Assembly (NCBI GenBank): GCA_965140575.1
Contig: OZ223261.1
Location: 391,243-455,242 of the forward strand
Direction of reading: 5' to 3'
Source: Sulfurovaceae bacterium
Lineage (GTDB): Bacteria; Campylobacterota; Campylobacteria; Campylobacterales; Sulfurovaceae
DNA length: 64,000 bases
Made by a program: the position numbers and the translations under genes. This document shows positions 11,978 through 62,572 of the stretch, piece after piece (within the stretch, counting starts at the first letter, position 1; every line of letters starts with the position of its first letter). Under the pieces are notes generated by a model. It made no database searches, had not been told where the DNA came from, and saw only the letters and a program-made list of their open reading frames with translations.

Positions 11978-13675
11978 ATGAAACTAAAATCAACCATCGA
12001 TAGTATAATATCCAAAGCACTTCTAGATGCAAACATTCCAAATCCAAATCTTAGTGTAACAAAGACGACCAAAAAAGAGTTTGGTGACTTTCAATACAAT
12101 GGCGCTATGGGGTTGGCAAAAAAACTCCAAACAAACCCAAGAGAGATAGCTACAAAGATTATCGCCAAGATAGACTCAACAGTGATCGAAAAAGTTGAGA
12201 TTGCCGGAGCCGGGTTTATCAACATTTGGCTCTCAAAAGAGTGGCTTGCCAAAGAGCTTGCCCTGATCATAAAAGATGAAAACCTTGGTATTCAAAAAGT
12301 AAAAAGCAAGAAAAATATCGTCGTAGATTATTCGGGTCCAAATATGGCAAAAGAGATGCATGTCGGACACCTTAGATCAACAATCATCGGAGATACGCTT
12401 GCAAATCTTCTTGAACTTCTAGGACACAATGTCATCAGACAAAATCACATAGGAGATTGGGGAACGCAATTTGGGATGCTCATCGCCTACCTCGAGGAGC
12501 TTGAATCAACAAACAGTATCAAAGAGAATCTAAAAGACCTTGAAGAGTTTTATAAACTCGCAAAAAAAAGATTTGATAGCGATGCAGCATTTGCTGATAA
12601 AGCTAGAGAACATGTAACTATGTTTCAAAGTGGCGATAAACATTGCTTAGAGCTTTGGAGGCGATTTATAGATATCTCTCTTGAGCATTGCGAGGAGGTT
12701 TATGAGAGACTTGAGATCAAACTCACAAGAGATGATGTCAAAGCAGAGAGCTCCTATAATGCCATGCTCCCCTCTGTTATAGAAAAGCTTGACAATAAGT
12801 CTCTTCTGAGCCTCAGCGAGGGAGCAAAATGTGTATTTTTGCCGCAAAATGAGATACCGCTCATCGTCCAAAAGAGTGATGGCGGTTACCTCTATGCAAC
12901 AACCGACCTTGCCGCACTTTGGTATAGAGATCAAGACCTTAAAGCCACTAGAGTCCTCTATGTTGTTGATGCAAGACAGGGCGAGCACTTCAAGCAGGTA
13001 TTTTGGGTTGCAAAAGCTGCCGATATGGTGCAAGAAGACGTCTCTTTGGAGCATATAGCTTTTGGGACGATGATGAACGAACAAGGCAAGCCTTTTAAGA
13101 CAAGAGACGGCGGAACATTTAAACTTATAGACCTTATCGATGAGGCGATAGTGCGAGCTAAAAATACTCTCAAAGACAAAGATGATACACAAGAGAGTAT
13201 CGAGCAAAAAGCGAAAATTATAGGGATCGGTGCTCTAAAATATGCTGATTTGAGTGTCAATAGAGAATCAAACTATATATTTAACTGGGATAGAATGCTA
13301 AGCTTTGAGGGCAATACTGCACTCTATATGCAGTATGCGTATGCGAGGATACAGAGTATCTTGAGAAGATATGATGGTCTTTTTGAAGGCGATATCAAAA
13401 TCGAGAGCGACATCGAACATGAACTCAGTGTTACACTGCTTGATTTTGAAGATGTACTCCATAAAAGCGCAAACGAGTGTATGCCAAGCTACATAACAAG
13501 CTATCTCTATGAGCTTGCGACTCTTTTTATGCGATTTTATGAACAAAGCCCCATACTCAAAGAGGGAGTTGAGCAAGAGACCAAGATAAGCAGGCTACTC
13601 CTCGCAAAAATAACAGCCGATACGATCAAACAAGGACTTGCAATCTTAGGTATAAAAACGCTCGAGAAGATCTAG
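11978..13675 (+). CDS. argS: arginine--tRNA ligase
   Basis: 565 aa. Class I HIGH-type motif MHVGHLRS. Typical ArgRS length and C-terminal anticodon-binding region. Confidence 0.95.
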   Translation: MKLKSTIDSIISKALLDANIPNPNLSVTKTTKKEFGDFQYNGAMGLAKKLQTNPREIATKIIAKIDSTVIEKVEIAGAGFINIWLSKEWLAKELALIIKDENLGIQKVKSKKNIVVDYSGPNMAKEMHVGHLRSTIIGDTLANLLELLGHNVIRQNHIGDWGTQFGMLIAYLEELESTNSIKENLKDLEEFYKLAKKRFDSDAAFADKAREHVTMFQSGDKHCLELWRRFIDISLEHCEEVYERLEIKLTRDDVKAESSYNAMLPSVIEKLDNKSLLSLSEGAKCVFLPQNEIPLIVQKSDGGYLYATTDLAALWYRDQDLKATRVLYVVDARQGEHFKQVFWVAKAADMVQEDVSLEHIAFGTMMNEQGKPFKTRDGGTFKLIDLIDEAIVRAKNTLKDKDDTQESIEQKAKIIGIGALKYADLSVNRESNYIFNWDRMLSFEGNTALYMQYAYARIQSILRRYDGLFEGDIKIESDIEHELSVTLLDFEDVLHKSANECMPSYITSYLYELATLFMRFYEQSPILKEGVEQETKISRLLLAKITADTIKQGLAILGIKTLEKI

Positions 13676-51434: not shown

Positions 51435-52052
51435 GTGTCTGAGTTAAAAACATTATTCAAAATAGTATTGATGATTTTTGTAGCATTGGTCGTTATGCGC
51501 TCATGCCAAAATGAACCATTACCTTCATCACAACAATTAAGCGCAACCCAATCTGATCCCCTCCAAAGTGCTCCCTCAAAAAAGGCTTTTTCTTTCAAGG
51601 ATTATACGATTACGCCTTTGGCTGATTTTGAAATCACTGCAAAAGTTCTCTCTTCTGAGCGCTATTATATCGGGAGAGAATCCGATCTTTCGCCCGTCGA
51701 TTTAGCATTGGGTTGGGGGCGTATGGCCGACGATGAAGTAATCAAAGCTATCAATATCTCTCAATCCGGCAGGTGGTATCACTGGGAGGCGCATGACCTT
51801 CCTATCCCTCGACGCGAGATCGAAACACATAGTGCAAATATGCACATGATACCACAAGATGATAGAATCAAATCGATACTACTTCGTGCGGAAAAAGGTG
51901 ATATCATCACTATCAAAGGGGCACTGGTTCGCATAGATGCAAAAGGGGGCGGCTGGCGTTGGAAAAGCTCTCTAAGCCGAAATGATACCGGAGGGGGTGC
52001 GTGCGAAGTTATCTTTGTAGAAGATGCTCAGATAGAATATTTCGAAGATTGA
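51435..52052 (+). CDS. hypothetical exported/membrane-anchored protein
   Basis: N-terminal hydrophobic helix LFKIVLMIFVALVVMRSC. No recognised motif. Confidence 0.55.
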   Translation: MSELKTLFKIVLMIFVALVVMRSCQNEPLPSSQQLSATQSDPLQSAPSKKAFSFKDYTITPLADFEITAKVLSSERYYIGRESDLSPVDLALGWGRMADDEVIKAINISQSGRWYHWEAHDLPIPRREIETHSANMHMIPQDDRIKSILLRAEKGDIITIKGALVRIDAKGGGWRWKSSLSRNDTGGGACEVIFVEDAQIEYFED

Positions 52053-52080
52053 AAATAATCTACTATAAGTCTCTCTTGAT

Positions 52081-54931: not shown

Positions 54932-55069
54932 GACTATTTCTTACTTTACACCTCTGTTGATGGTGTGATAAAACTGCTGTTATGCATGGTCTTTTAAGCA
55001 CTCTTCCTTTGTACAGTTAAAGTATAGGAAACCCATAGCATAGGATAAACTAATTTGGTATCGGCTTTA

Positions 55070-55080
55070 CCTGACCCCTT
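55070..55080. repeat. boundary motif copy CCTGACCCCTT (left arm of IR bracketing the 77-aa ORF)
   Basis: Perfect reverse complement of 55448-55458. Confidence 0.6.
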
Positions 55081-55092
55081 CACTTCAAATGT

Positions 55093-55113
55093 GTCCCCTA
55101 TATTCTCTATATT
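55093..55113. repeat. boundary motif copy GTCCCCTATATTCTCTATATT (left arm of long-range IR)
   Basis: Reverse complement matches 56851-56870 (AATATAGAAATATAGGGGTC) with one indel and one mismatch. Confidence 0.55.
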
Positions 55114-55151
55114 CCTTATTTTTTAGCAAAAAAGAGTTTCGGTCACTTTGG

Positions 55152-55184
55152 ACAGGACACCAGCAGGAAGTCCTGTTTTATTTC
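55152..55184 (+). terminator. rho-independent terminator (plus-strand sense), insulating the island from fadD-like read-through
   Basis: ACAGGAC-11 nt loop-GTCCTGT followed by TTTTATTT. Overlaps the stop of the convergent 77-aa ORF. Confidence 0.5.
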
Positions 55185-55411
55185 TTAAACTTATTCCAAG
55201 GTCTATCTTTACTTGAAGTCCATCTTAAGTAAGGCACAACAAGATAAAAACCAAAGAAAATAAAAAAAGAAACAAGGGAAAAAGCCAATCCTCTGTAGGC
55301 ACCTTCGTTAAGGTAACTTTGCGGGATTATGGTAATCAAAATTCCTATCAGAATTAATATTATGCCTATTTTCATGTTTTTTTTCATTTTTGCTTCATCG
55401 ACATTACTCAT
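55178..55411 (-). CDS. island ORF A: small 2-TM membrane protein
   Basis: 77 aa. AAGGA RBS 8 nt upstream. Two hydrophobic helices (IGIILILIGILITII, AFSLVSFFIFFGFYLVV). Confidence 0.6.
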   Translation of the reverse strand: MSNVDEAKMKKNMKIGIILILIGILITIIPQSYLNEGAYRGLAFSLVSFFIFFGFYLVVPYLRWTSSKDRPWNKFKK

Positions 55412-55445
55412 TTATATTTCCTTGCTTTATATATCAGGTCTAAGC

Positions 55446-55985
55446 CTAAGGGGTCAGGAATAAACCTACACTAAGAATGATATAGAAAATACCAAATATG
55501 ATAGTTGCTATACCGATTTTAAAAGCTTTTTTACCTCTAAAATAGTTATGAGAAGATATAACTCTCGTTTTATGAGTATCAAGATTATTATGATGTAAAC
55601 CACCACCTAAAGTATATGTACCTTTTGTGAAATAATAATTAGTTCTTATCTTTCTTTTTATGATGCCATTTTTATAACCATTATAAATATCTTTAAGACC
55701 GAAAAATAAAAAATAAATGGAAATAATCTTTATTAAATGTATATTGGTCTCTTCATACGGTCTATTGATGTATATAAGATAAATGAACAATATAAGAATA
55801 AAAGTACAAAATAAATCAAATATTGCATTGCATATTGCTGCGCCTTTATAGTGATATGGTCCTGACACTCCTCCTCTCGGAAATGGCATTTTTTTTACAA
55901 TTAAACCTTGCATAGAAGCAAAATATAATTTTTTGATAATTATACTTAAAACAACAAACATGGCTATAAATATTATAAATTTCAT
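55446..55985 (-). CDS. island ORF B: 4-TM membrane protein
   Basis: 179 aa. GGAAGG RBS. Four hydrophobic segments. No motif recognised. Confidence 0.6.
   Translation of the reverse strand: MKFIIFIAMFVVLSIIIKKLYFASMQGLIVKKMPFPRGGVSGPYHYKGAAICNAIFDLFCTFILILFIYLIYINRPYEETNIHLIKIISIYFLFFGLKDIYNGYKNGIIKRKIRTNYYFTKGTYTLGGGLHHNNLDTHKTRVISSHNYFRGKKAFKIGIATIIFGIFYIILSVGLFLTP
55448..55458. repeat. boundary motif copy AAGGGGTCAGG (right arm of IR bracketing ORF A)
   Basis: Perfect reverse complement of 55070-55080. Overlaps the last codons and stop of ORF B. Confidence 0.6.
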
Positions 55986-56020
55986 TTGCCTTCCTTATTA
56001 ATGTTGTTTCTCTCGTTTTC

Positions 56021-56119
56021 CTCTCGCTCCCACGCTGTGCGCGAGAATGCATACTTTAGTATTTTATCATATTTACTGCAGGTCGATATGCTCTTAGAGA
56101 AACGGCATTGGCATCGCCT
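56021..56119. repeat. island intergenic repeat, copy R1
   Basis: Aligns with 57246-57358 and 59804-59876. Shared ...TCCCAC.CTGTGCGC...ATTTTATCATATTTACTGCAGGTCGATATGC... core. Confidence 0.8.
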
Positions 56120-56131
56120 CCATTCATATAG

Positions 56132-56153
56132 GCTATCACTATCACCTGACACC
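56132..56153. repeat. 22-bp inverted repeat, left arm (GCTATCACTATCACCTGACACC)
   Basis: Perfect reverse complement of 56553-56574 and 56754-56775. Overlaps the stop codon of ORF C. Confidence 0.85.
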
Positions 56154-56507
56154 TATATTTAATGGTACAGACCTACATGCCGGTCTATCTTTACTCCCTT
56201 GAAGACAACTTGATGCAGACTTGCCATCGATTCCTCTTGGATAATATTTGTATCCTTTTTTGAGCATACAATAATCATGATGGGCTGTTCTCTTTTTGTC
56301 TAAATTGACATTTCCAAGAGGATATATTTTGATTGCACTACGCATACAAAAATCTAGATCTTGTAATTTTTCATCTTTGGACACATTATTTTTATCCCAA
56401 GATTCAATAGTACCTGCTGTATTACCAACAAAATCTCTCTCAATTCCTGCACAAGCCATTAATAAAATTATGCAGCCTGTGTAACCCATGATTTTGAATA
56501 TTTTCAT
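56142..56507 (-). CDS. island ORF C: small lipoprotein, bracketed by 22-bp perfect IRs
   Basis: ATG 56507 follows GGAGGA. MKIFKIMGYTGCIILLMAC lipobox LMAC. Six further Cys in the mature part. Confidence 0.65.
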   Translation of the reverse strand: MKIFKIMGYTGCIILLMACAGIERDFVGNTAGTIESWDKNNVSKDEKLQDLDFCMRSAIKIYPLGNVNLDKKRTAHHDYCMLKKGYKYYPRGIDGKSASSCLQGSKDRPACRSVPLNIGVR

Positions 56508-56546
56508 TATTGTCCTCCATTGATGACATAAAGACATAAAGGTGTC

Positions 56547-56648
56547 AATAAAGGTGTCAGGTGATAGTGATAGCACATTATTTTCCTTTTGTTCTTTTTA
56601 TAATATTATTTATAGTTGGTTGTGCCAATTTAAGTATTTTAGCCATCG
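56547..56648. repeat. 102-bp direct repeat, copy 1
   Basis: Identical to 56748-56849 except one mismatch (T/C at 56620/56821). Includes the 22-bp IR arm and an HTH-coding tail. Confidence 0.85.
56553..56574. repeat. 22-bp inverted repeat, right arm copy 1 (GGTGTCAGGTGATAGTGATAGC)
   Basis: Verified codon-by-codon against the track translation MLSLSPDTFIDT of 56142..56576. Confidence 0.85.
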
Positions 56649-56757
56649 TATGTTGAGAATAGCCTTGCTCATAACACTCTACTATGAACTTATTTCTTTC
56701 TTTGATATCTTTTGAATTTAAAAGTATTTTTCTTAAAATAAAGGCAAAATAAAGGTG
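56578..56757 (-). pseudogene. truncated helix-turn-helix remnant (serine-recombinase C-terminal HTH or IS630-type transposase HTH)
   Basis: Own translation of the open frame: ...LRKILLNSKDIKERNKFIVECYEQGYSQHTMAKILKLAQPTINNIIKRTKGK*. Only the last 22 codons follow an ATG. The upstream side is closed by a stop inside the repeat. Confidence 0.5.
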
Positions 56758-56849
56758 TCAGGTGATAGTGATAGCACATTATTTTCCTTTTGTTCTTTTT
56801 ATAATATTATTTATAGTTGGCTGTGCCAATTTAAGTATTTTAGCCATCG
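56748..56849. repeat. 102-bp direct repeat, copy 2
   Basis: See copy 1. Carries a second MAKILKLAQPTINNIIKRTKGK* tail (56779-56847, minus strand). Confidence 0.85.
56754..56775. repeat. 22-bp inverted repeat, right arm copy 2
   Basis: Identical to 56553-56574. Confidence 0.85.
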
Positions 56850-56850
56850 A

Positions 56851-56870
56851 AATATAGAAATATAGGGGTC
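56851..56870. repeat. boundary motif copy AATATAGAAATATAGGGGTC (right arm of long-range IR)
   Basis: Inverted match to 55093-55113. Confidence 0.55.
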
Positions 56871-56896
56871 TATTGTGTTTTTAATAAATACTTCTT

Positions 56897-57163
56897 TTAC
56901 TCATTATTTTCTGGTAATTCTTCCTCGTATGGATTTCTAACACTATCAATAAATTTTCTATCTTTAGCGCCAAAATCCAAATAATTTTTTCTAGCTTCCG
57001 ATAAAGACATTTTATTTGCTCCACCAACATATTTATCGGGTCTATCGTGTGCAACTTCATCATATTGCCAATGACAAACACTACAAATATCAGTAATTAC
57101 TTCTAATCCAAGTTCATTATTGATTGTATAATTACCACAACATGGGCATTTTATCTTCTTCAT
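56897..57163 (-). CDS. island ORF D: CPCC-family cysteine-rich protein
   Basis: MKKIKCPCCGNYT...CSVCHWQYD. AGGAGG RBS 6-8 nt upstream of ATG 57163. Confidence 0.7.
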   Translation of the reverse strand: MKKIKCPCCGNYTINNELGLEVITDICSVCHWQYDEVAHDRPDKYVGGANKMSLSEARKNYLDFGAKDRKFIDSVRNPYEEELPENNE

Positions 57164-57245
57164 TAAGTACACCTCCTATTTTGTTCCATGTTTTGCTATT
57201 TGACCCAACCAATAATCAATTCCTGTATCTGGCTTGAAGTATGTT

Positions 57246-57358
57246 CCTCTCATTCCCACACTGTGCGCAGAAATACATATTTCAACATTTTATCATATTT
57301 ACTGCAGGTCGATATGCCCTCAGAGGAATGGCATTGACATCACCTAGCTCCTATATTT
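57246..57358. repeat. island intergenic repeat, copy R2 (ends in boundary motif CATCACCTAGCTCCTATATTT)
   Basis: Aligns with R1 and R3 over the core and with R1 over the GGCATTG.CATC.CCT...CTATATTT tail. Confidence 0.8.
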
Positions 57359-57376
57359 GCTACATCCAGTCATGCC

Positions 57377-58135
57377 CTACTTCGCCCACTTGTCCTCTTC
57401 TTTAAGAATATTTTTAACAAATTCGCAGGTGTAGTGTCTTGTATTATCTTGCGTACTTTGAAGTGTGCATTTTGAGAGTGTCCACTTTTTACCTTGCCAC
57501 ACCATGCCCGTCATACCACCATCTCTATATAGTCTCTTATCAAAATCTAGCAACTTTATCTCTTCATCTCCAAGAGCATAAGATGTTGCACTGTTTCCAA
57601 TATAAATCTTTTTTAAAATGTAGATAGTCTTTGCTTTAAAATATTTCCTTTTATCATCATTCCGAAGCATGTTTATATCTTTTAGATTAAATGCGACAGC
57701 CTCATTTGACCTTAGTTTGATATAATCAATTCCTATGCTTGCTTTATAATATCGACTATCTTCGATATTATTAATTATTATAGGGGGAGATATCACACAC
57801 AAACCAGGATTGTTTTCACAGCCATATAAATCATCGGAATATGTATGCTGTTTATCATCTCTCACGTAAATCACTGATGAACTTGTATAGTAGGGATTAC
57901 CCTTATAAACATAAAATGTTTTATTGCATTTATTAGTGTAAGAAGATTGTATATATACTTTATCAAAACCTGACATATAATCTTTTTCATATGTAAGTCC
58001 CACTATTCTGTCTTGAAGTTTTTCTTCTCCACACTTCACATCTTCAATAGATGGCGTTTTAGTGCAACCATACCCTATCAAAAATACTTGCACTAGTAAA
58101 ATAAACTTTAATGCTGTATGTATGTTTAGTTTCAT
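57377..58135 (-). CDS. island ORF E: 252-aa probable lipoprotein/secreted protein
   Basis: Signal-like ALKFILLVQVFLIGYGC. AAGGA RBS. ATG overlaps the stop of ORF F (TAATG). Confidence 0.65.
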   Translation of the reverse strand: MKLNIHTALKFILLVQVFLIGYGCTKTPSIEDVKCGEEKLQDRIVGLTYEKDYMSGFDKVYIQSSYTNKCNKTFYVYKGNPYYTSSSVIYVRDDKQHTYSDDLYGCENNPGLCVISPPIIINNIEDSRYYKASIGIDYIKLRSNEAVAFNLKDINMLRNDDKRKYFKAKTIYILKKIYIGNSATSYALGDEEIKLLDFDKRLYRDGGMTGMVWQGKKWTLSKCTLQSTQDNTRHYTCEFVKNILKEEDKWAK

Positions 58136-58494
58136 TACTGTTTTCCTTGTTGTGCCTCTGCCAATTCTTCCGGATATTTTTTATAATACTCTTTTACATC
58201 TATCGTATCCGCATCTTTACAATGTGGGCATTTGCCATTTATAGTATCTTTATAATCAAATACCTCTTTACATTTGGGGCATTTGGTTGTTAGAGGTTTT
58301 ATGTATCTTTTATATTCCTTAACTACACTCATCAATAATAATCCGCCCAAAACTATCAAAACTATACCAACAGGAATATACAAATAAAATTGACTAAAAT
58401 CTACATAGCCACCTCTCCCAGTAAATTTTTGAACAACAATAACCTTTAACCCCAATCCTATTAAAACCAAACCTAATATTATTTTTCTAATCAT
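58135..58494 (-). CDS. island ORF F: 2-TM protein with C-terminal zinc ribbon
   Basis: 119 aa. Two TM helices, then CPKCKEVF...GKCPHCKD. Confidence 0.6.
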   Translation of the reverse strand: MIRKIILGLVLIGLGLKVIVVQKFTGRGGYVDFSQFYLYIPVGIVLIVLGGLLLMSVVKEYKRYIKPLTTKCPKCKEVFDYKDTINGKCPHCKDADTIDVKEYYKKYPEELAEAQQGKQ

Positions 58495-58610
58495 TTGCTA
58501 TCATTTGATTGAGATATATCTTCACTATTTTCCCCTCCATAATCATATGGTTTTACCGCAAGTTTTTGCTCCTCAGGAGTTAAACTATTATAGAGATTAT
58601 AGCGTGTCAT
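58491..58610 (-). CDS. possible 39-aa micro-ORF translationally coupled to ORF F
   Basis: Own translation MTRYNLYNSLTPEEQKLAVKPYDYGGENSEDISQSNDSK*. Its TGA overlaps the ATG of ORF F (ATGA). No clear RBS. Confidence 0.25.
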   Translation of the reverse strand: MTRYNLYNSLTPEEQKLAVKPYDYGGENSEDISQSNDSK

Positions 58611-58623
58611 TTCAGCATAGGCT

Positions 58624-59154
58624 TCATTTTTTATTTGCTTCATTATCAGTAAGCTGAATATCTGACCAAGATGATGTTATGGTTTTCTTTGTAAATCTAG
58701 TGTTTGCTCCTCCAACCCCACCTCCTATCCTCATATCTCCCCAACGACAATTAGTAGGAATGTCATCTTTGTGTCTAAACATTATTTCACCATTTTGATA
58801 ATATTCATTCTTTATTGGATGTAACGGAAAGGTATCAATATATACGGCTTCATACTCAGATAAAAATTTCTCTTTCCCTTCATTAAGAACTTTTATTATA
58901 TCACCACAAAAATAAGTAACATACACAATGACATTAGTATCTCTTTTGTTATTAACTTCAAATGATATATTTGCAATTTTAGACGATTTATAGTAAGAAA
59001 TGTCTGTAAGCTTTACTTCCACATCATGTCTAATTTTTTGCATTTCTAAAGATTCTATATTGTTTGGTCCATACTCATAATGATGCGAGCATCCTGCAAA
59101 TAATAAAATCAAGACAAATAAGCGAAGTCTTTTATAAATAATAATTATTTTCAT
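58624..59154 (-). CDS. island ORF G: lipoprotein (paralog of ORF H)
   Basis: LILLFAGCSHH lipobox. Its N-terminal 70 aa align with ORF H. Confidence 0.65.
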   Translation of the reverse strand: MKIIIIYKRLRLFVLILLFAGCSHHYEYGPNNIESLEMQKIRHDVEVKLTDISYYKSSKIANISFEVNNKRDTNVIVYVTYFCGDIIKVLNEGKEKFLSEYEAVYIDTFPLHPIKNEYYQNGEIMFRHKDDIPTNCRWGDMRIGGGVGGANTRFTKKTITSSWSDIQLTDNEANKK

Positions 59155-59205
59155 ATTAGTATTTTATCCTTTTGTTTAAATCGTATTCTCTACGCAAAGC
59201 GTTTT

Positions 59206-59760
59206 TTATGGATCAATAAAATCTCCGGTATAAGGATAATCCACATCACTTTTATAGTTTTTATCTTTTTTATATGGAAAATCTAGTGGAATATTGACAG
59301 TTTCAATCAGTTTTTTACCAGGATCAACATAAAGTGGCATAGTAATTCTCTCGGTAAAATCCTCTACACATAAACTACGGACATGATTTAAAAAACCGTT
59401 CTCATCTCTCTGCATGATGTTTACTCTTCCAAGATAATATAATGCTTCGTATTTGTAAGTTTTTATCTGACTGTGCCTTTCTATCGGCAAACATAATATA
59501 ACACCATATACACCGATAGTCTCTTGTGTTTTATTGGTGACTTCGTATGTTACTTCAGCCATATGGTGTAATTTTATATCCTTTGTTTTTATGATCTTTA
59601 CTTCCACATTTTGCTCTATTTTTTCAATTTCTGCATTCTCTTTGTTTGGCAAATAATAACTTGGATTATTTTCACTGCATCCGAATAAAAGCAAAGAGAA
59701 AAATACTGTTATCCATAAGTTATGGAAGGAATTATTTATTTTCAAATCTTGGGGTTTCAT
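59206..59760 (-). CDS. island ORF H: lipoprotein (paralog of ORF G)
   Basis: ATG 59760 (MKPQDL...) lies 6 nt after AAAGGA. SLLLFGCSENN lipobox. The track's longer N-terminus is translated repeat R3. Confidence 0.65.
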   Translation of the reverse strand: MKPQDLKINNSFHNLWITVFFSLLLFGCSENNPSYYLPNKENAEIEKIEQNVEVKIIKTKDIKLHHMAEVTYEVTNKTQETIGVYGVILCLPIERHSQIKTYKYEALYYLGRVNIMQRDENGFLNHVRSLCVEDFTERITMPLYVDPGKKLIETVNIPLDFPYKKDKNYKSDVDYPYTGDFIDP

Positions 59761-59803
59761 AACTTGTCCTTTGGTTAAGATTGTGTTCAGTGCGTAAAGC
59801 ATT

Positions 59804-59876
59804 TTCTCTCGTTCCCATACTCTGCGTGGGAATGCATATTTCAACATTTTATCATATTTACTACAGATCGATATAT
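59804..59876. repeat. island intergenic repeat, copy R3
   Basis: TTCTCTCGTTCCCATACTCTGCGTGGGAATGCATATTTCAACATTTTATCATATTTACTACAGATCGATAT aligns with the R1/R2 core. Lacks their boundary-motif tail. Confidence 0.8.
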
Positions 59877-59938
59877 ACCCTTAAATGATGGGCGCAAAGA
59901 GTCGGATTTTGATTCCTATCTCCATCTTTCCAATCAAA

Positions 59939-60280
59939 CTATATACTATCCGTATCTTGAATATCCACAGAAGAGATTTTTGACATCTTCTCTTCAACTT
60001 TCTCAAAAAAACTATTTTGTGCTTCCTCATCCATATTTTCACTAATCATATCTAAAATGTAAAATATCCCATTTGCGTTGATCTTTTTGACACTTGCTAG
60101 ATAGTGGACAAAAGCTATCTGCTTGATATCATCGATAGAATAAAGTTTCTTTTTTATGGAGTCTTTTTTAGGTAGCAACAATCGATCTTCATACATCTTA
60201 AGTGTTCTGCTTTTCGCGCCCAATAGTTCAGCAACAGCCGAGAGAGGAAGTATATCTTTAGAGTTGTCTAAAAGAGCCAA
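59939..60280 (-). CDS. MerR/HspR-like HTH transcriptional regulator, divergent from ectABC
   Basis: 113 aa. LSAVAELLGAKSRTLKMYEDRLLLP...LYSIDDIKQIAFV matches the MerR-type HTH + wing pattern. TTG start. Confidence 0.7.
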   Translation of the reverse strand: MALLDNSKDILPLSAVAELLGAKSRTLKMYEDRLLLPKKDSIKKKLYSIDDIKQIAFVHYLASVKKINANGIFYILDMISENMDEEAQNSFFEKVEEKMSKISSVDIQDTDSI

Positions 60281-60339
60281 TAGCTCTCCTTTATTTGTAA
60301 GGTTACATAATTATATCTAATATTAATTTAATGTTACTA

Positions 60340-60378
60340 TGTTATACTCGACACAATTTGTGTTAAATTATGACACAA
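60340..60378 (+). promoter_or_regulatory. putative ectA promoter (TGtTATACT) with overlapping palindromic operator ACACAA-T-TTGTGT plus third half-site GACACAA
   Basis: Extended -10 at 60340-60348. Palindrome at 60351-60363. Half-site at 60372-60378. AAAGGA RBS before ATG 60404. Confidence 0.4.
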
Positions 60379-60403
60379 AAATCGTAATAATTTAAAGGAT
60401 AAT

Positions 60404-60916
60404 ATGTTTTTTAATAACATTAATATTGTAAATCCAACCAAGGAAGATTCAAAAGGAATCTACGAACTTATCAAGCGATCAAAACCGCTAGATCTTAACT
60501 CTGAGTATCTCTACTTGCTACAAACAGTCTATTTTGAAGGAACATGTATAGCAGCAAAACATGAAGATAAAATCATCGGTTTTGTCTCAGGCTTCAAAGC
60601 ACCAAAAGATGATAAAACATTTTTTGTATGGCAGGTCGCCGTAGACAAAGAGTATAGAGGACAAAATATCGCCTTTAGGATGCTCAAGACTCTTTTTGAT
60701 TCTAAACCACTTGAAGATATAGAGTCGATAGAAACGACTATATCACCATCAAATATCGCCTCTCAAAGAGTTTTCGAAAAATTTGCAAATGAGATGGATT
60801 TTGATAAAGAGATATCTCTCTTTGCTGCGAAGGATGATTTTTCTGACAGCCATGAAGATGAACTTTTATATCTACTAAAACCAAAAGTAAAAAAGGATAC
60901 ACATGAGAATATTTGA
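60404..60916 (+). CDS. ectA: L-2,4-diaminobutyrate acetyltransferase
   Basis: 170 aa GNAT. LDLNSEYLYLLQ...TCIAA...GFVSGF...FFVWQVAVDKEYRGQNIAFRML matches the EctA pattern. Confidence 0.88.
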   Translation: MFFNNINIVNPTKEDSKGIYELIKRSKPLDLNSEYLYLLQTVYFEGTCIAAKHEDKIIGFVSGFKAPKDDKTFFVWQVAVDKEYRGQNIAFRMLKTLFDSKPLEDIESIETTISPSNIASQRVFEKFANEMDFDKEISLFAAKDDFSDSHEDELLYLLKPKVKKDTHENI

Positions 60917-62180
60917 GACATACGAATCAGTCGTAAGAGGATATATAAGAAGCTTCCCGACTATTTTTGAAAAAGCAAAAGGCTCTTACCTCATCGATGA
61001 GCAAGGAAATGAATATATAGATTTCTTTGCAGGTGCAGGTACACTCAATTATGGACACAACAACCCAAAAGCAAGCAAAGCACTCATAGAGTATCTCCAA
61101 AATGACGGGATTGTTCATGGTTTAGATATGGCAACGACTGCAAAAAAAGCATTTATGGAGAAATTTGTCACGACGATCCTTGAGCCTAGAAATATGGAGT
61201 ATAAGCTTCAATTTACAGGACCCACAGGAACCAATGCGGTCGAAACGGCACTGAAACTTGCACGACTCGTCAAGGGACGATCCAATATCGTCTCTTTTAC
61301 CAACGGATATCATGGACTCTCGCAGGGTGCACTCTCTGTTACGGGCAATAATTTCTACAGAGATGAATCCCACATCAGCCGCTCCAATGTAACCTTTATG
61401 CCCTATGATAACTTCTTAGGAGAAGATGTAGATTCGCTCAAAGTTTTTAGAAAATACTTAGAAGATGGTAGCAGTGGACTTGATACGCCTGCTGCTGTTA
61501 TCCTAGAGACAGTGCAAGGAGAAGGCGGTATCAATGTCGCTTCAAAAGAGTGGCTTCAAGGCGTTGAATCGCTTTGTCGCGAATTTGATATGCTGCTCAT
61601 CATAGATGATATACAAGTAGGTAACGGCCGAACAGGTGATTTTTTCTCATTTGAATTTGCCAATCTTAACCCGGATATCATAACGCTGAGCAAATCCATA
61701 GGGGGTGGTTTACCTATGGCGTTAGTGCTTTTCCGTCCTGAGCTTGATCAGTGGAAGCCGGGGGAACACACAGGAACCTTTAGAGGGAACAATCTTGCCT
61801 TTGTCGCTTCGACACAACTGCTTGATTATTGGGATAACGATGATCTCTCAAAAGCGGTCTTTTATAAAGAAGAGATACTCAAAACGAAGCTTGAAGCAAT
61901 AGCTAAAAAATACAGTGATTGGGGCATGAAGGTTAAAGGGCGAGGACTCGTCTATGGGCTTGAAATTGCCAGTGAACATAGTGTTGCTTCTGATATCTCT
62001 GCAAAAGCTTTTGAAAACGGACTTATCATCGAAACATGCGGTTCAAGTTCACATGTTGTCAAATTTCTTCCACCGCTTACCGTCGATGAAGAGACACTCA
62101 TAGCCGGACTTGAACTTTTTGAGAAATCGGTTGATGCAGTCATGAAAGAGAAAAAAGATAGATTAACAGAAGGATTTTAA
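60903..62180 (+). CDS. ectB: diaminobutyrate--2-oxoglutarate transaminase
   Basis: 425 aa. FETYESVVRGYIRSFP...IDFFAGAGTLNYGHNNP and the PLP lysine region LSKSIGG. Confidence 0.9.
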   Translation: MRIFETYESVVRGYIRSFPTIFEKAKGSYLIDEQGNEYIDFFAGAGTLNYGHNNPKASKALIEYLQNDGIVHGLDMATTAKKAFMEKFVTTILEPRNMEYKLQFTGPTGTNAVETALKLARLVKGRSNIVSFTNGYHGLSQGALSVTGNNFYRDESHISRSNVTFMPYDNFLGEDVDSLKVFRKYLEDGSSGLDTPAAVILETVQGEGGINVASKEWLQGVESLCREFDMLLIIDDIQVGNGRTGDFFSFEFANLNPDIITLSKSIGGGLPMALVLFRPELDQWKPGEHTGTFRGNNLAFVASTQLLDYWDNDDLSKAVFYKEEILKTKLEAIAKKYSDWGMKVKGRGLVYGLEIASEHSVASDISAKAFENGLIIETCGSSSHVVKFLPPLTVDEETLIAGLELFEKSVDAVMKEKKDRLTEGF

Positions 62181-62572
62181 TGATAGTACGAGACATAAAA
62201 GATATCATAGGAAGCGAAAAAGAGGTACACGCCAAAGAGGGTCAATGGGTGAGCAGACGCATGTTGCTCAAAAGTGACAATATGGGATTTTCTTTTCATG
62301 AAACGATCATAAAAGCAGGAAGCAAAACACATATCCACTACAAAAATCACTTAGAAGCCGTCTATTGTGTTGCGGGAAACGGCAAGATAGAAGATCTCAA
62401 AACAGGGGAAGTACATCCGATATATGATGGCATTATGTACGCACTAAACCTCCACGATGACCATAATCTCTACGGCGGTAGTGAAGATATGCGTCTTATC
62501 TGTGTCTTCAATCCGCCGATTAAGGGTACGGAAAATCATGATGAAAACGGTGTTTACCCTTTAGAGAATTGA
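62180..62572 (+). CDS. ectC: L-ectoine synthase
   Basis: 130 aa cupin. MIVRDIKDI...FSFHETII.AGS.THIHYKNHLEAVYCV.G.G. Confidence 0.9.
   Translation: MIVRDIKDIIGSEKEVHAKEGQWVSRRMLLKSDNMGFSFHETIIKAGSKTHIHYKNHLEAVYCVAGNGKIEDLKTGEVHPIYDGIMYALNLHDDHNLYGGSEDMRLICVFNPPIKGTENHDENGVYPLEN

Follow-up and report, generated by a model that had tools for sequence, protein, structure and literature searches.

A recurring inverted-repeat motif in a Sulfurovaceae genome is very probably the terminal inverted repeat of a TIRtron (TIRYT element) that has decayed in the window (the whole stretch of DNA analysed, 64,000 nt), and ORF C, the gene enclosed by two perfect motif copies, is on that reading flanking DNA between insertions. 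TIRtrons are small mobile elements; the enzyme that they encode, the TIRYT, is RAYT-like, a Y1/HUH transposase for single-stranded DNA with ~256 aa and an HTH at its C-terminus. The decayed content of the window comprises two tandem 3' stumps with their right ends, a truncated left end, core-only scars and three ~120-nt repeats, which open with a sister-type end and stand before cargo genes. The locus is a further member of this known but barely studied TIRYT/TIRtron kind.

TIRYTs (TIR-associated tyrosine transposases) and TIRtrons were described by Di Nocera et al. 2013 (PMC3733652), who reported GGGGWSAS as the consensus for the TIRs of TIRYT genes. TIRYT is subclass 2.1 of the TnpA-REP-like Y1 HuH proteins, with HTH_23 / Bac_DnaA_C C-termini (Quentin et al. 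2018; PMC6006769). In the literature that we searched, these two papers, which named TIRYT elements in 2013 and re-classified them in 2018, are the sole ones to deal with them. The locus and its relatives are concrete material for a first biochemical test of TIRYT: the end architecture is resolved, GGGGTC|AGG is a candidate for the nick, close relatives within the Sulfurovaceae show filled, empty and rearranged sites as a natural series, and a cultured isolate has apparently intact copies. They also hold a lesson for annotation, namely that two transposon ends, viewed from their outer sides, can be all there is to a perfect inverted repeat that flanks one gene, and that element ends rewrite the 3' ends and stop codons of adjacent genes.

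The inverted-repeat motif and its islet

The sequence-only reading took the motif copies around single genes for possible borders of invertible or mobile cassettes. Its central observation is borne out: GCTATCACTATCACCTGACACC occupies 56132-56153 and its exact reverse complement 56553-56574, on either side of ORF C, and the imperfect extension of this pair to 28 nt is equally real (96%; 56132-56159 / 56547-56574, 387 bp apart). The copy at 56754-56775, listed there merely as related, is a third GCTATCACTATCACCTGACACC, and with it included the repeat stretches to 29 nt at 97%. Zero copies are expected by chance, even with up to three mismatches (100 shuffles). The 11-bp pair around ORF A (CCTGACCCCTT at 55070-55080, AAGGGGTCAGG at 55448-55458) is present, but by itself it is not beyond chance. 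At no more than one mismatch, GGGGTCAGG has six matches in the 64 kb against 4.2 expected, five of which cluster within ~1.7 kb (55070-56762), and ATATAGGNGTC has eight against 3.1 expected, six of them in 55093-56870. The reported overlap with stop codons holds for both ORF C, whose final residues NIGVR and stop fall within the left arm, and ORF B, which ends in LFLTP and stop within the copy at 55448-55458.

Within the window the motif is found only in an AT-rich islet (31.8% GC vs 39.3% for the window) that has an acyl-CoA synthetase gene on one side and a MerR/ectABC locus on the other. The genes of the islet are small and encode membrane proteins and lipoproteins. Weaker relatives of the 22-bp repeat occur at other gene borders of the islet. 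The sequence-only reading had missed that this region as a whole is a strain-specific insertion; it had likewise missed the three ~120-nt intergenic repeats and a tandem duplication with a period of 201 bp (56547-56648 = 56748-56849, 99%), of which the second and third 22-mer copies are both part. The islet and its parts are as follows.

54933-59939, no strand: strain-variable islet of 5,007 bp, with nine ORFs of at least 50 aa, every one on the minus strand
55070-55113, minus strand: left-end-type remnant, minus-strand reading AATATAGAGAATATAGGGGACACATTTGAAGTGAAGGGGTCAGG
55446-55985, minus strand: ORF B, a 179-aa multi-pass membrane protein, between repeat A and the core copy at 55448-55458
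55448-55458, plus strand: core-only copy AAGGGGTCAGG, an exact GGGGWSAS match, providing the final codons and stop of ORF B
56018-56131, minus strand: 120-nt repeat A, upstream of ORF B, beginning with a degenerate sister-type terminal repeat, CTATATGAATGGAGGCGATGCCAATGCC
56132-56160, minus strand: left arm, a 29-nt left-end-type terminal repeat fragment, minus-strand reading AAATATAGGTGTCAGGTGATAGTGATAGC
56142-56507, minus strand: ORF C, a 121-aa putative lipoprotein with a signal peptide ending LLMAC, between the outward faces of two terminal repeats
56536-56574, plus strand: right arm, the right-end terminal repeat of stump 1, two iterated units ATAAAGGTGTCA and then GGTGATAGTGATAGC
56578-56736, minus strand: transposase stump 1, the last 52 codons and stop, C-terminal HTH domain of a TIRYT gene
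56747-56775, plus strand: third terminal-repeat copy, the right end of stump 2
56779-56847, minus strand: transposase stump 2, the last 22 codons and stop, within the tandem duplication
56851-56870, plus strand: terminal-repeat fragment with outer units only, AAATATAGAAATATAGGGGTC, stopping at GGGGTC immediately behind the CPCC gene
56897-57172, minus strand: ORF D, a 91-aa cysteine-rich CPCC-family protein (Pfam PF14206, E = 5e-26)
57244-57360, minus strand: 120-nt repeat B, upstream of the CPCC gene, with a terminal-repeat-like start, AAATATAGGAGCTAGGTGATGTCAATGCC
59803-59925, minus strand: 120-nt repeat C, upstream of ORF H, with a degenerate outer unit, GGAGATAGGAATCA

The left arm, which provides the final codons and stop of ORF C, is broken off directly after GATAGC and joined there to repeat A; with the left ends of loci L007, L018, L027 and L069 it shares 96-100% identity. 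At the spot of 55070-55113, L069 (97% identity through ORF A) continues as a complete left end, ...AAATATAGGTGTCAGGTGATAGTGATAGCTTAAG. ORF D is bordered by repeat B on one side and by the 56851-56870 fragment on the other. Behind the intact gene of L064, too, 3' end and right end are duplicated in tandem (154 bp, period 181).

The 120-nt repeats combine an end-like start with other sequence. The start of repeat A is followed by TGATAAAAT, which may be an extended -10, then by a weak hairpin and by GAGAGGAA; the terminal-repeat side of repeat A is turned inward beside ORF B. TGATAAAAT and GAGAGGAA stand at a constant distance before ORFs B, D and H. By hand count, the 5' end of the repeat (the version of repeat A in run X4) agrees with the left end of L060 at 22/27 positions; nothing like the remainder, with its promoter-like box and its hairpin, stands before the intact TIRYT genes examined. 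AAATATAGGAGCTAGGTGATGTCAATGCC, at 57338-57360 in repeat B, is one of the related copies of the sequence-only reading. Repeat B stands behind ORF E in other Sulfurovaceae contigs, but before a different gene. Repeat C, ~15 nt or less from the right islet border, is also found behind the MerR gene in L032. A scan of a genome collection with the repeat core CTGYAGTAAATATGATAAAAT gave four chance matches in unrelated phyla, so the repeat is absent from the GTDB species representatives at exact-match level. Promoter and terminator predictions did no better than on shuffles in this AT-rich DNA, with the TGATAAAAT box not flagged, so a promoter role for it is something that we only infer. Single-strand folds of the three repeats, both strands, against shuffles gave z = -2.7, -0.2 and +0.8, the first being marginal and due to pairing between two adjacent end copies. 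An attC-like or REP-hairpin nature of these repeats was rejected, since the folds were mostly no better than those of shuffles.

ORF C had no match in Pfam or PADLOC, and the PADLOC scan of the eight cargo ORFs found nothing. Among the cargo ORFs Pfam recognised only CPCC, a YesK-like match that scored under the cut-off and, weakly, a HypA-like zinc ribbon. Rfam at the gathering threshold gave one tRNA in the whole window and no family for the repeats.

A RAYT-like transposase and its terminal repeats

Homology identifies the gene remnant beside the motif, at the level of sequence, as the C-terminus of a ~256-aa RAYT-like Y1/HUH transposase of the TIRYT class (subclass 2.1, C-terminal HTH). 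Stump 1 (52 aa) is 83% identical to P0001 and 71% to P0002, and by tblastn it corresponds to residues 205-256 of a 256-aa protein. P0001 is encoded in L007 by the 3' part of a frameshifted Y1_Tnp gene. The read-through 256-aa protein matches Pfam Y1_Tnp (E = 1.4e-16) and scores 77 bits on its closest NCBIfam model, REP_Tyr_transpos, just under the curated cut-off of 80; on the IS200 model NF033573 it reaches 26 bits vs a cut-off of 55. HYH and YIEQNP motifs are seen in the full-length relatives. The protein has at least 2,629 homologues at E <= 1e-10, and the 120 best listed are mostly 254-266 aa; among the matches listed, the few named ones are Campylobacterales or Sulfurovum, and several carry the name 'REP element-mobilizing transposase RayT'. 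Stump 1 itself gives weak Pfam matches to HTH_23 (E = 0.0046) and HTH_SB, and precomputed PF13384 annotations are found on many full-length homologues. A PDB sequence search with the full-length transposase as query found no match. A serine recombinase origin of the HTH was dropped because the full-length relatives carry a Y1_Tnp N-terminal domain. The earlier proposal of a recombinase-like HTH remnant was thus right about a DNA-rearranging enzyme and wrong about a site-specific recombinase or invertase, the relatives being Y1/HUH transposases.

In five intact relatives (L007, L018, L060, L062 and L064), inverted motif copies of 27-45 nt flank the transposase gene at fixed distances from its ATG and stop. 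From the GGGTCAGG core to the ATG there are 59-69 nt, and from the stop to the core on the other side 13-16 nt; for stump 1 of the window, to which the right end alone remains attached, the latter distance is 16 nt, like that in intact elements L007 and L018. An intact element opens with two to four iterated outer units that end in GGGGTCA, followed by GGT and an inner box of two half-sites, here GATAGTGATAGC. Some 60 nt on comes the transposase gene, and some 15 nt behind the gene the repeat returns in inverted form. The end architecture has iterated outer units, GGGGTCAGGT and a two-half-site inner box that both ends have in common. GGGGTCAG matches GGGGWSAS exactly at 55070-55078, at 55450-55458 and in all five intact relatives, and the three 22-mer copies carry GGTGTCAG, one mismatch from this consensus. 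The repeat is a direct two-half-site box plus the GGGGTCA core, with no self-complementarity visible in its sequence; a 147-nt stretch holding it folds chiefly by pairing with the adjacent start of repeat A.

The orientation of the ends shows how ORF C lies. Intact elements have the GATAGC side of the repeat towards the transposase gene and its variable ATATAGG... side on the outside. At ORF C the outward sides of both flanking arms point at the gene, and ORF C is therefore DNA between two element ends, not a cassette inside a mobile or invertible unit as had been suggested. The perfect 22-28-bp inverted repeat arises because the right end of the stump and the left-end fragment, itself joined to repeat A, have their outer sides turned towards each other across the gene. 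The earlier view that the motif is the recognition end of a DNA-rearranging enzyme, with a remnant of the enzyme's gene adjoining it, stands, and the arms, which it held to fit terminators less well, are indeed not terminators.

A metagenome scan located the motif at 51 loci, of which ~30 are AT-rich and match over a longer stretch. Among them are solo ends, back-to-back dimers (L012, L024, L045), direct arrays (L009, L041, L046) and complete elements (L018), and direct, inner-inner and outer-outer orientations of the ends are all seen.

Variation among strains and within the genome

Comparison of strains confirmed the expectation that gene content between motif copies varies. Metagenome contig L001 lacks the islet, and both flanks are 96-97% identical to those of the window; its empty junction reads from the acyl-CoA synthetase stop through GTAAATATT into the MerR gene. 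Runs X3 and X5 have the same empty junction, and their contigs leave the window sequence exactly at 55455|55456, which is GGGGTC|AGG. Run X4 joins 56114 to 56871, and at the site of 56851-56870 a reverse-oriented outer unit is fused directly to repeat A. The outer unit at 56851-56870 is inverted relative to X4, a hint at inversion between two ends. ORFs F-E with their 120-nt repeat adjoin different genes in L065-L068, and in L032 the stump and right end are joined into the MerR gene. Gene orders vary among strains, with some breakpoints at or beside repeats. Repeats interrupt de Bruijn unitigs on technical grounds, so contig ends at the motif are weaker evidence than joints flanked by unique sequence. 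The islet borders (54932/54933 and 59939/59940) have neither a clean terminal repeat nor a target duplication, and the islet therefore did not arrive as one TIR-bounded unit.

Further transposase copies exist in the same genome. In the isolate runs X1 and X2, a 625-nt unitig covers the transposase from its start to about residue 195 at ~1.8x depth; one internally deleted copy is also present, and the ends reach ~10x depth. Unitig depth thus gives about two apparently intact transposases, one internally deleted copy, two stumps and about ten ends. Presence or absence and re-ordering among strains, the orientation of the ends and these additional copies are plain observations; transposase-dependent mobility is putative, being indicated indirectly by the strain presence/absence, the re-ordering and the multiple copies in one genome.

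On the TIRtron reading, a TIRYT acting in trans would bind the ends, with the HTH on the inner box, and would nick one strand at or near GGGGTC|AGG; this cleavage site and HTH target are both predicted. Repeated insertion beside existing ends, abortive events and end-end recombination could then have built and reshuffled the islet.

Related systems and competing explanations

The locus shares with published TIRtrons a RAYT-like Y1/HUH protein that exceeds RAYTs in length and has an HTH at its C-terminus (HTH_23 / DnaA_C-like), long terminal inverted repeats flanking the gene in place of REP hairpins, GGGGWSAS in these repeats, and their occurrence as singles, dimers and clusters at moderate copy number. 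It differs in its lineage, Campylobacterota (Sulfurovaceae), which may or may not figure among the 26 published examples, and in that the window copy is a dead remnant. Neither PMC3733652 nor PMC6006769 was found to describe the resolved end architecture, the association with small cargo or toxin-antitoxin genes, or the way in which the 3' end of the gene and the right end are repeatedly duplicated in tandem.

REP/REPIN-RAYT systems (REPtrons) have a homologous Y1/HUH enzyme, as the best NCBIfam model indicates, and inverted short-repeat copies that flank the gene and also occur gene-free, including as back-to-back inverted dimers. REP repeats are imperfect palindromes (hairpins) of 20-40 nt that carry a GTAG (or CGTC) tag, whereas the repeats here show neither a palindromic hairpin nor GTAG. 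They number about ten ends rather than hundreds and are confined to a variable islet instead of being spread over core intergenic regions, and the transposase is multi-copy (about two intact plus remnants) where REPtrons have a single domesticated copy. IS200/IS605 elements (IS608, ISDra2) likewise have a Y1/HUH catalytic domain, a small size and, presumably, single-strand cleavage at sequence-defined sites. Apart from the low IS200 model score, they differ in having a TnpA of about 130-150 aa (IS200-type) against 256 aa here, the extra ~100 aa being due to the HTH, and in same-orientation subterminal hairpins in contrast to true inverted repeats with iterated units; there is no tnpB here.

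The resemblance to Hin/Gin/Cin invertase switches lies in inverted repeats of ~26-34 bp around a segment of a few hundred to a few thousand bp and in an adjacent gene ending in an HTH. On this account phase variation would come from a recombinase that inverts the 387-bp segment of ORF C between its 28-bp arms and the segment of ORF A between its 11-bp arms; a complete lipoprotein gene with its RBS inside a perfect 22-bp inverted repeat (398 bp apart) and the remnant of a DNA-rearranging enzyme next door would suit it. We consider this most improbable. The remnant is a non-functional stump of a Y1/HUH transposase and not a serine recombinase or any other invertase, the arms have the orientation of two element ends viewed from outside, and strains differ in the presence or absence of the segment, not in its orientation. 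The inverted form envisaged earlier was sought in the assembled contigs of the isolate, where a rare inversion could escape: no unitig joins the arms in the inverted sense, those at 56062-56394 and 56443-56576 cross the two arms as in the reference, with the depth of a single copy, and no strand-switch joints were listed at a 1% threshold (~100x and ~1,500-2,000x word depth). A classical integron cassette array with attC sites is extremely improbable once the motif is recognised as the demonstrable end of a Y1 transposase element, even though small, same-strand, promoter-poor ORFs with a recurring imperfect repeat between them, strain-variable content and toxin-antitoxin cassettes at related loci recall one; no IntI-type tyrosine recombinase or integrase-like ORF was seen beside the islet, the repeats have neither the R''/L''...L'/R' palindrome nor GTTRRRY ends, and two of the three 120-nt repeats fold no better than shuffles. 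It is unlikely, if less so, that the repeats have a host-level RNA or regulatory role (REP-like mRNA stabilisers, terminators or mobile promoters) and a transposase link that is historical only. Their position at gene borders, the stop codons that they give to ORFs B and C and the constant placement of TGATAAAAT and GAGAGGAA before ORFs B, D and H would fit such a role, but neither the promoter scan nor Rfam returned anything in its support, and the motif is restricted within the 64 kb to a variable islet.

The most serious competitor, which we regard as possible though doubtful, is a Y1-transposase cassette system, in which same-strand repeats delimit excisable single-stranded cassettes of small cargo or toxin-antitoxin genes and TIRYT moves and reorders them in trans, making the islet a working integron-like array and not debris. 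Direct arrays of ends separate toxin-antitoxin pairs (ParE, HicAB, PIN, MNT/HepT, BrnTA) in L009, L013, L041 and L046. The window, L007 and L064 have one arrangement in common, namely transposase, right end, cargo and a truncated left end in the same direction as the first; the direct repeat in L064 is 87 bp long and 100% identical. Gene order is strain-dependent with joints at or beside repeats, and a paralog of ORF F lies near a repeat cluster elsewhere in the same genome. Against it, the contigs contain no excised circle and no clean-ended empty/filled pair for a single cassette, every orientation of ends occurs, and homologous recombination between 30-120-nt repeats would shuffle genes likewise. 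A more specific version, somewhat less probable still, is that TIRYT ends act like attC sites, with the Y1/HUH enzyme excising cassettes, whose genes would be toxin-antitoxin pairs or encode small envelope proteins, and re-inserting them beside GGGGTCA cores; the nick would then fall at GGGGTC|AGG, hypervariable arrays would be built without an integron integrase, and the iterated outer units and the tandem duplications of gene 3' end plus right end would be footprints of the reaction.

There are also signs of cargo-gene paralogs: the part of ORF C at 56365-56472 has 2x depth, with a diverging unitig pointing to a paralog elsewhere in the genome, and the ORF F paralog adjoins its repeat cluster through a joint of 56158 to 58184.

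Inverted repeats and the transposase remnant

A sequence-only reading had described a perfect 22-bp inverted repeat around ORF C, a small minus-strand lipoprotein gene. This repeat is present, with GCTATCACTATCACCTGACACC at 56132-56153 and its exact complement at 56553-56574, and the complement occurs again at 56754-56775. No matches to GCTATCACTATCACCTGACACC are expected in shuffled sequence even with three mismatches allowed, and the 22-mer pairs lengthen to 28-29 nt at 96-97% identity. The 11-bp pair at 55070-55080 and 55448-55458 and the weaker related copies at 55093-55113, 56851-56870 and 57338-57358 were also recovered, and motif copies overlap the stops of both ORF C and the membrane protein gene ORF B, as had been claimed. 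Genes next to element ends take their stop codons from these ends. Five of the six GGGGTCAGG-like matches fall within 1.7 kb; cores this short are not rare by chance over 64 kb. Three features had been missed: a tandem duplication with a period of 201 bp and a unit of 102 bp (56547-56648 repeated at 56748-56849, 99%), which includes the second and third 22-mer copies; a ~120-nt repeat present three times; and a low-GC run at 55178-59847 in which all nine ORFs of 50 aa or more are on the minus strand (31.8% GC vs 39.3% in the window).

The minus strand from 56736 to 56578 (stump 1) translates to ...LRKILLNSKDIKERNKFIVECYEQGYSQHTMAKILKLAQPTINNIIKRTKGK*, and its last 22 codons recur at 56847-56779 (stump 2). 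The 52-residue remnant matched two proteins in a database search, at 83% and 71% identity. The 83% match, in a GenBank metagenome-assembled genome (L007), constitutes the 3' portion of a gene that encodes Pfam Y1_Tnp in its 5' portion, the two portions being split by a single extra base. The read-through protein (256 aa) matches Y1_Tnp at 1.4e-16, contains HYH and YIEQNP motifs, and scores 77 bits on the NCBI REP-associated tyrosine transposase model, below its cut-off of 80; the IS200 model gives it 26 bits (cut-off 55). It has at least 2,629 homologues at E <= 1e-10, with lengths of mostly 254-266 aa among the best 120; among the matches listed, the named homologues are from Campylobacterales or Sulfurovum and several carry the JGI name 'REP element-mobilizing transposase RayT'. 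Because its relatives match the Y1_Tnp and REP-associated models and include RayT-named homologues, the predicted remnant peptide is identified as the C-terminal HTH of a RAYT-like Y1/HUH transposase. An HTH remnant does adjoin the repeats, as first read, but its attribution to a site-specific recombinase does not stand, since the full-length relatives are Y1_Tnp proteins; both serine and tyrosine site-specific recombinases are ruled out as its source by these Y1/HUH relatives.

RAYT-like genes with long flanking terminal inverted repeats sharing GGGGWSAS were described by Di Nocera et al., who coined the names TIRYT for the transposase and TIRtron for the element, and who reported repeat copies as singles, dimers or clusters (PMC3733652). 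Quentin et al. equate TIRYTs with one group of TnpA-REP-like proteins, subclass 2.1, whose defining trait is an HTH_23, HTH_28 or DnaA_C-like domain at the C-terminus (PMC6006769). The window motif and its intact relatives agree with the published description of GGGGWSAS repeats and a RAYT-like gene.

Terminal repeats and transposase copies in related genomes

Upstream of the L007 transposase gene lies ...AAATATAGAAATATAGAATATAGCAAATATAGGGGTCAGGTGATAGTGATAGC, and an inverted copy, GTACTATCACTATCACCTGACCCCTATTCT, lies 16 nt past the stop. Inverted motif copies flank four more intact genes, on contigs L018, L060, L062 and L064, and in all five elements the GGGTCAGG core is found 59-69 nt ahead of the ATG and 13-16 nt past the stop. 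An inner box is the same at both ends of an element and different between elements (GATAGTGATAGC, AATGCTAATGCC, GAAAATGACAAC / AACAATGACAAC, GATAATGATAAC). Outside the core, a short unit ending GGGGTCA is iterated directly at each end, in two to four copies; this iterated side points outward, and the side with GATAGC points to the gene. A metagenome scan with GTCAGGTGATAGTGATAG returned 51 loci, about 30 of them AT-rich with the extended architecture; their outer units vary by locus (ATATAG, ATAAAG, GATAAGG, TTTTAGG, CATATTAAG, GACTTTATGTGG and others), and at some loci the duplicated unit takes in a stretch of the constant region. GGGGTCAG is an exact fit to GGGGWSAS, and all three 22-mers of the window carry GGTGTCAG. 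These comparisons establish the recurring motif as the terminal repeat of a TIRYT element.

One assembly, GCA_002483605.1, holds at least two diverged TIRYT genes (L060 and L062, 86% and 82% identical to the query) with separate inner boxes, AATGCTAATGCC vs GAAAATGACAAC, as if enzyme and end co-diverged. At L060 563-10771 the intact element lies just downstream of a two-partner-secretion locus, which has a ShlB-type transporter, small ORFs and a TPS/haemagglutinin protein of 2,141 aa. Gene-less back-to-back inverted dimers with few bases between their inner sides occur at L012 2218-2275, L024 about 262-347 and L045 about 11987-12051, and resemble REPINs as minimal elements.

By cluster look-ups, the window belongs to a 1.15-Mb contig whose relatives are annotated Sulfurovaceae. 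Isolate contigs (runs X1 and X2) were mapped on the intact L018 element. A 625-nt unitig that covers the transposase gene between its start codon and about residue 195 has roughly 1.8x single-copy depth, so apparently intact copies exist elsewhere in the genome; one copy has an internal 519-bp deletion, and element ends reach about 10x depth. The apparently intact copies could act in trans. ORF C (N-terminal part, 56365-56524) and ORF F (58184-58298) also have paralogs elsewhere in the isolate genome, judged from depth and diverging unitigs, and a repeat-unit cluster (CCTCACCTATATCGTATATCTGACACCTATATCC) adjoins the ORF F paralog.

Strain differences in the islet

In the metagenome contig L001, 96-97% identical on both sides, the acyl-CoA synthetase stop is followed by GTAAATATT and then the MerR gene, and 54933-59939 (5,007 bp) is therefore missing. 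This empty junction predominates in metagenome runs X3 and X5, and at least three other sequences continue from 54931, 54932 or 54961 in X3, X5 and X11. Unitigs stop at repeats for technical reasons, and a joint was given full weight only if the sequence on either side of it is unique. In run X4, 56114 is joined to 56871, so that ORF C and both stumps are missing; 55032-55078 also comes to lie beside repeat B, the second ~120-nt copy. Contigs of X3 and X5 diverge from the window at 55455/55456, within GGGGTC/AGG. In L032 (about 90% identical) a transposase stump and right end are joined into the MerR coding sequence at window position 60094, beside AGTGTCA, and L069 (97% identical through ORF A, a 2-TM protein gene) has a complete left end in place of the 55070-55113 scar. 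On four contigs from other Sulfurovaceae the gene that comes after ORFs F-E and the 120-nt repeat is not the one found in the window; L065 has ORFs F-E and the repeat beside BCCT transporter and porin genes, both absent from the window. Strain differences break at or near element ends, and element ends are concentrated in this hypervariable islet.

At L069 640-979 a left end is joined to a partial ORF rich in A/G/T/N, which gives the impression of a CdiA/TpsA-type fragment. A second strain difference, 51449-52055 (607 bp, missing in L001, 95-96% identical), contains a single complete ORF (about 200 aa, roughly 51443-52053), and no terminal-repeat motif was found at its borders. Beside the islet, 59939-62572 holds a minus-strand MerR-family regulator gene next to:
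ectA, acetyltransferase
ectB, diaminobutyrate aminotransferase
ectC, ectoine synthase

ORF C, recurrent layouts and the cassette question

The arms beside ORF C are as follows.
56536-56574, right end of transposase stump 1, outward side toward ORF C
56132-56160, left-end fragment cut after GATAGC and fused to repeat A, outward side toward ORF C

Since both outward sides face it, ORF C lies between two element ends, as flanking DNA would be, and not within an element; a self-contained cassette holding ORF C is not supported. ORF A likewise lies between outward faces, and ORFs B and D (the latter CPCC-family) each have a 120-nt repeat on one side, its inner side toward the gene, and a core-only or outer-only fragment on the other. 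The invertible gene switch that had also been suggested is not supported either. Isolate Logan contigs (word depth about 100 in X1 and about 1,500-2,000 in X2) cross the arms in the reference orientation alone, with unitigs 56062-56394 and 56443-56576 at single-copy depth; among the joints listed at the 1% threshold, none switches strand. This argues against frequent inversion of the segment; rare events are compatible with contig-level data.

The window's layout of gene, right end, cargo and truncated left end recurs in L007, with a 142-aa ORF as cargo, and in L064, where two ORFs are the cargo and the left-end copy after them is 87 bp long and 100% identical. In L064 the gene 3' end and right end are tandemly duplicated (154 bp, period 181).
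L064 10643-10977, tandem duplication, counterpart of the 201-bp duplication at window 56547-56849
L064 12322-12408, left-end copy

Independent duplication in two genomes points to a side product that the reaction of the element itself makes repeatedly. Y1/HUH enzymes such as IS608 TnpA and the E. coli RAYT are the established precedent for the mechanism proposed here. The TIRYT would nick a single strand at a site defined by sequence, with GGGGTC/AGG as its most plausible location, and its HTH would bind the two half-sites of the inner box. Clusters, partial tandem duplications and reshuffling could then result from insertions close to ends already present, from abortive or read-through events, and from recombination between ends.

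Because an HUH enzyme works on one strand, same-strand ends could instead delimit excisable cassettes, in an integron-like array run by the transposase. Toxin-antitoxin pairs (ParE, HicA/HicB, PIN, MNT/HepT, BrnT/BrnA) are indeed bracketed by terminal-repeat copies, often direct and cassette-array-like, on the Campylobacterales metagenome contigs L009, L013, L041 and L046. However, neither a clean single-cassette filled/empty pair nor a circle junction was found, and homologous recombination between repeats accounts for the same patterns, which makes such an array unlikely. The window carries dead TIRYT remnants and solo ends, and the locus is correctly filed as TIRtron remnants and solo ends in a strain-variable islet. 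TIRtrons are known but barely studied, and the locus is useful raw material for how TIRYTs act.

The ~120-nt repeats (A, 56018-56131; B, 57244-57360; C, 59803-59925) each lie ahead of the next minus-strand gene and start with a degenerate sister-type end; repeat A in X4, AAATATAGGAATTAGGTAATGCCAATGCC, is alike the L060 left end at 22/27 positions by hand count. The remainder comprises a conserved box, TGATAAAAT, a weak hairpin, TTCCCRCGC-N3-5-GYGTGGGAA (in summary TTCCCRCGC...GTGGGAA), and then GAGAGGAA. This remainder has no counterpart upstream of the intact TIRYT genes examined, and the repeat has no exact-level match among GTDB species representatives; we infer that it might act as a promoter or leader. 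Translated, it yields the pseudo-peptide MLKYAFPRRVWERE, which makes the called ORF H too long. ORFs G and H (58624-59154 and 59206-59760) are paralogous putative lipoproteins without family assignment, 31% identical over 77 aa.
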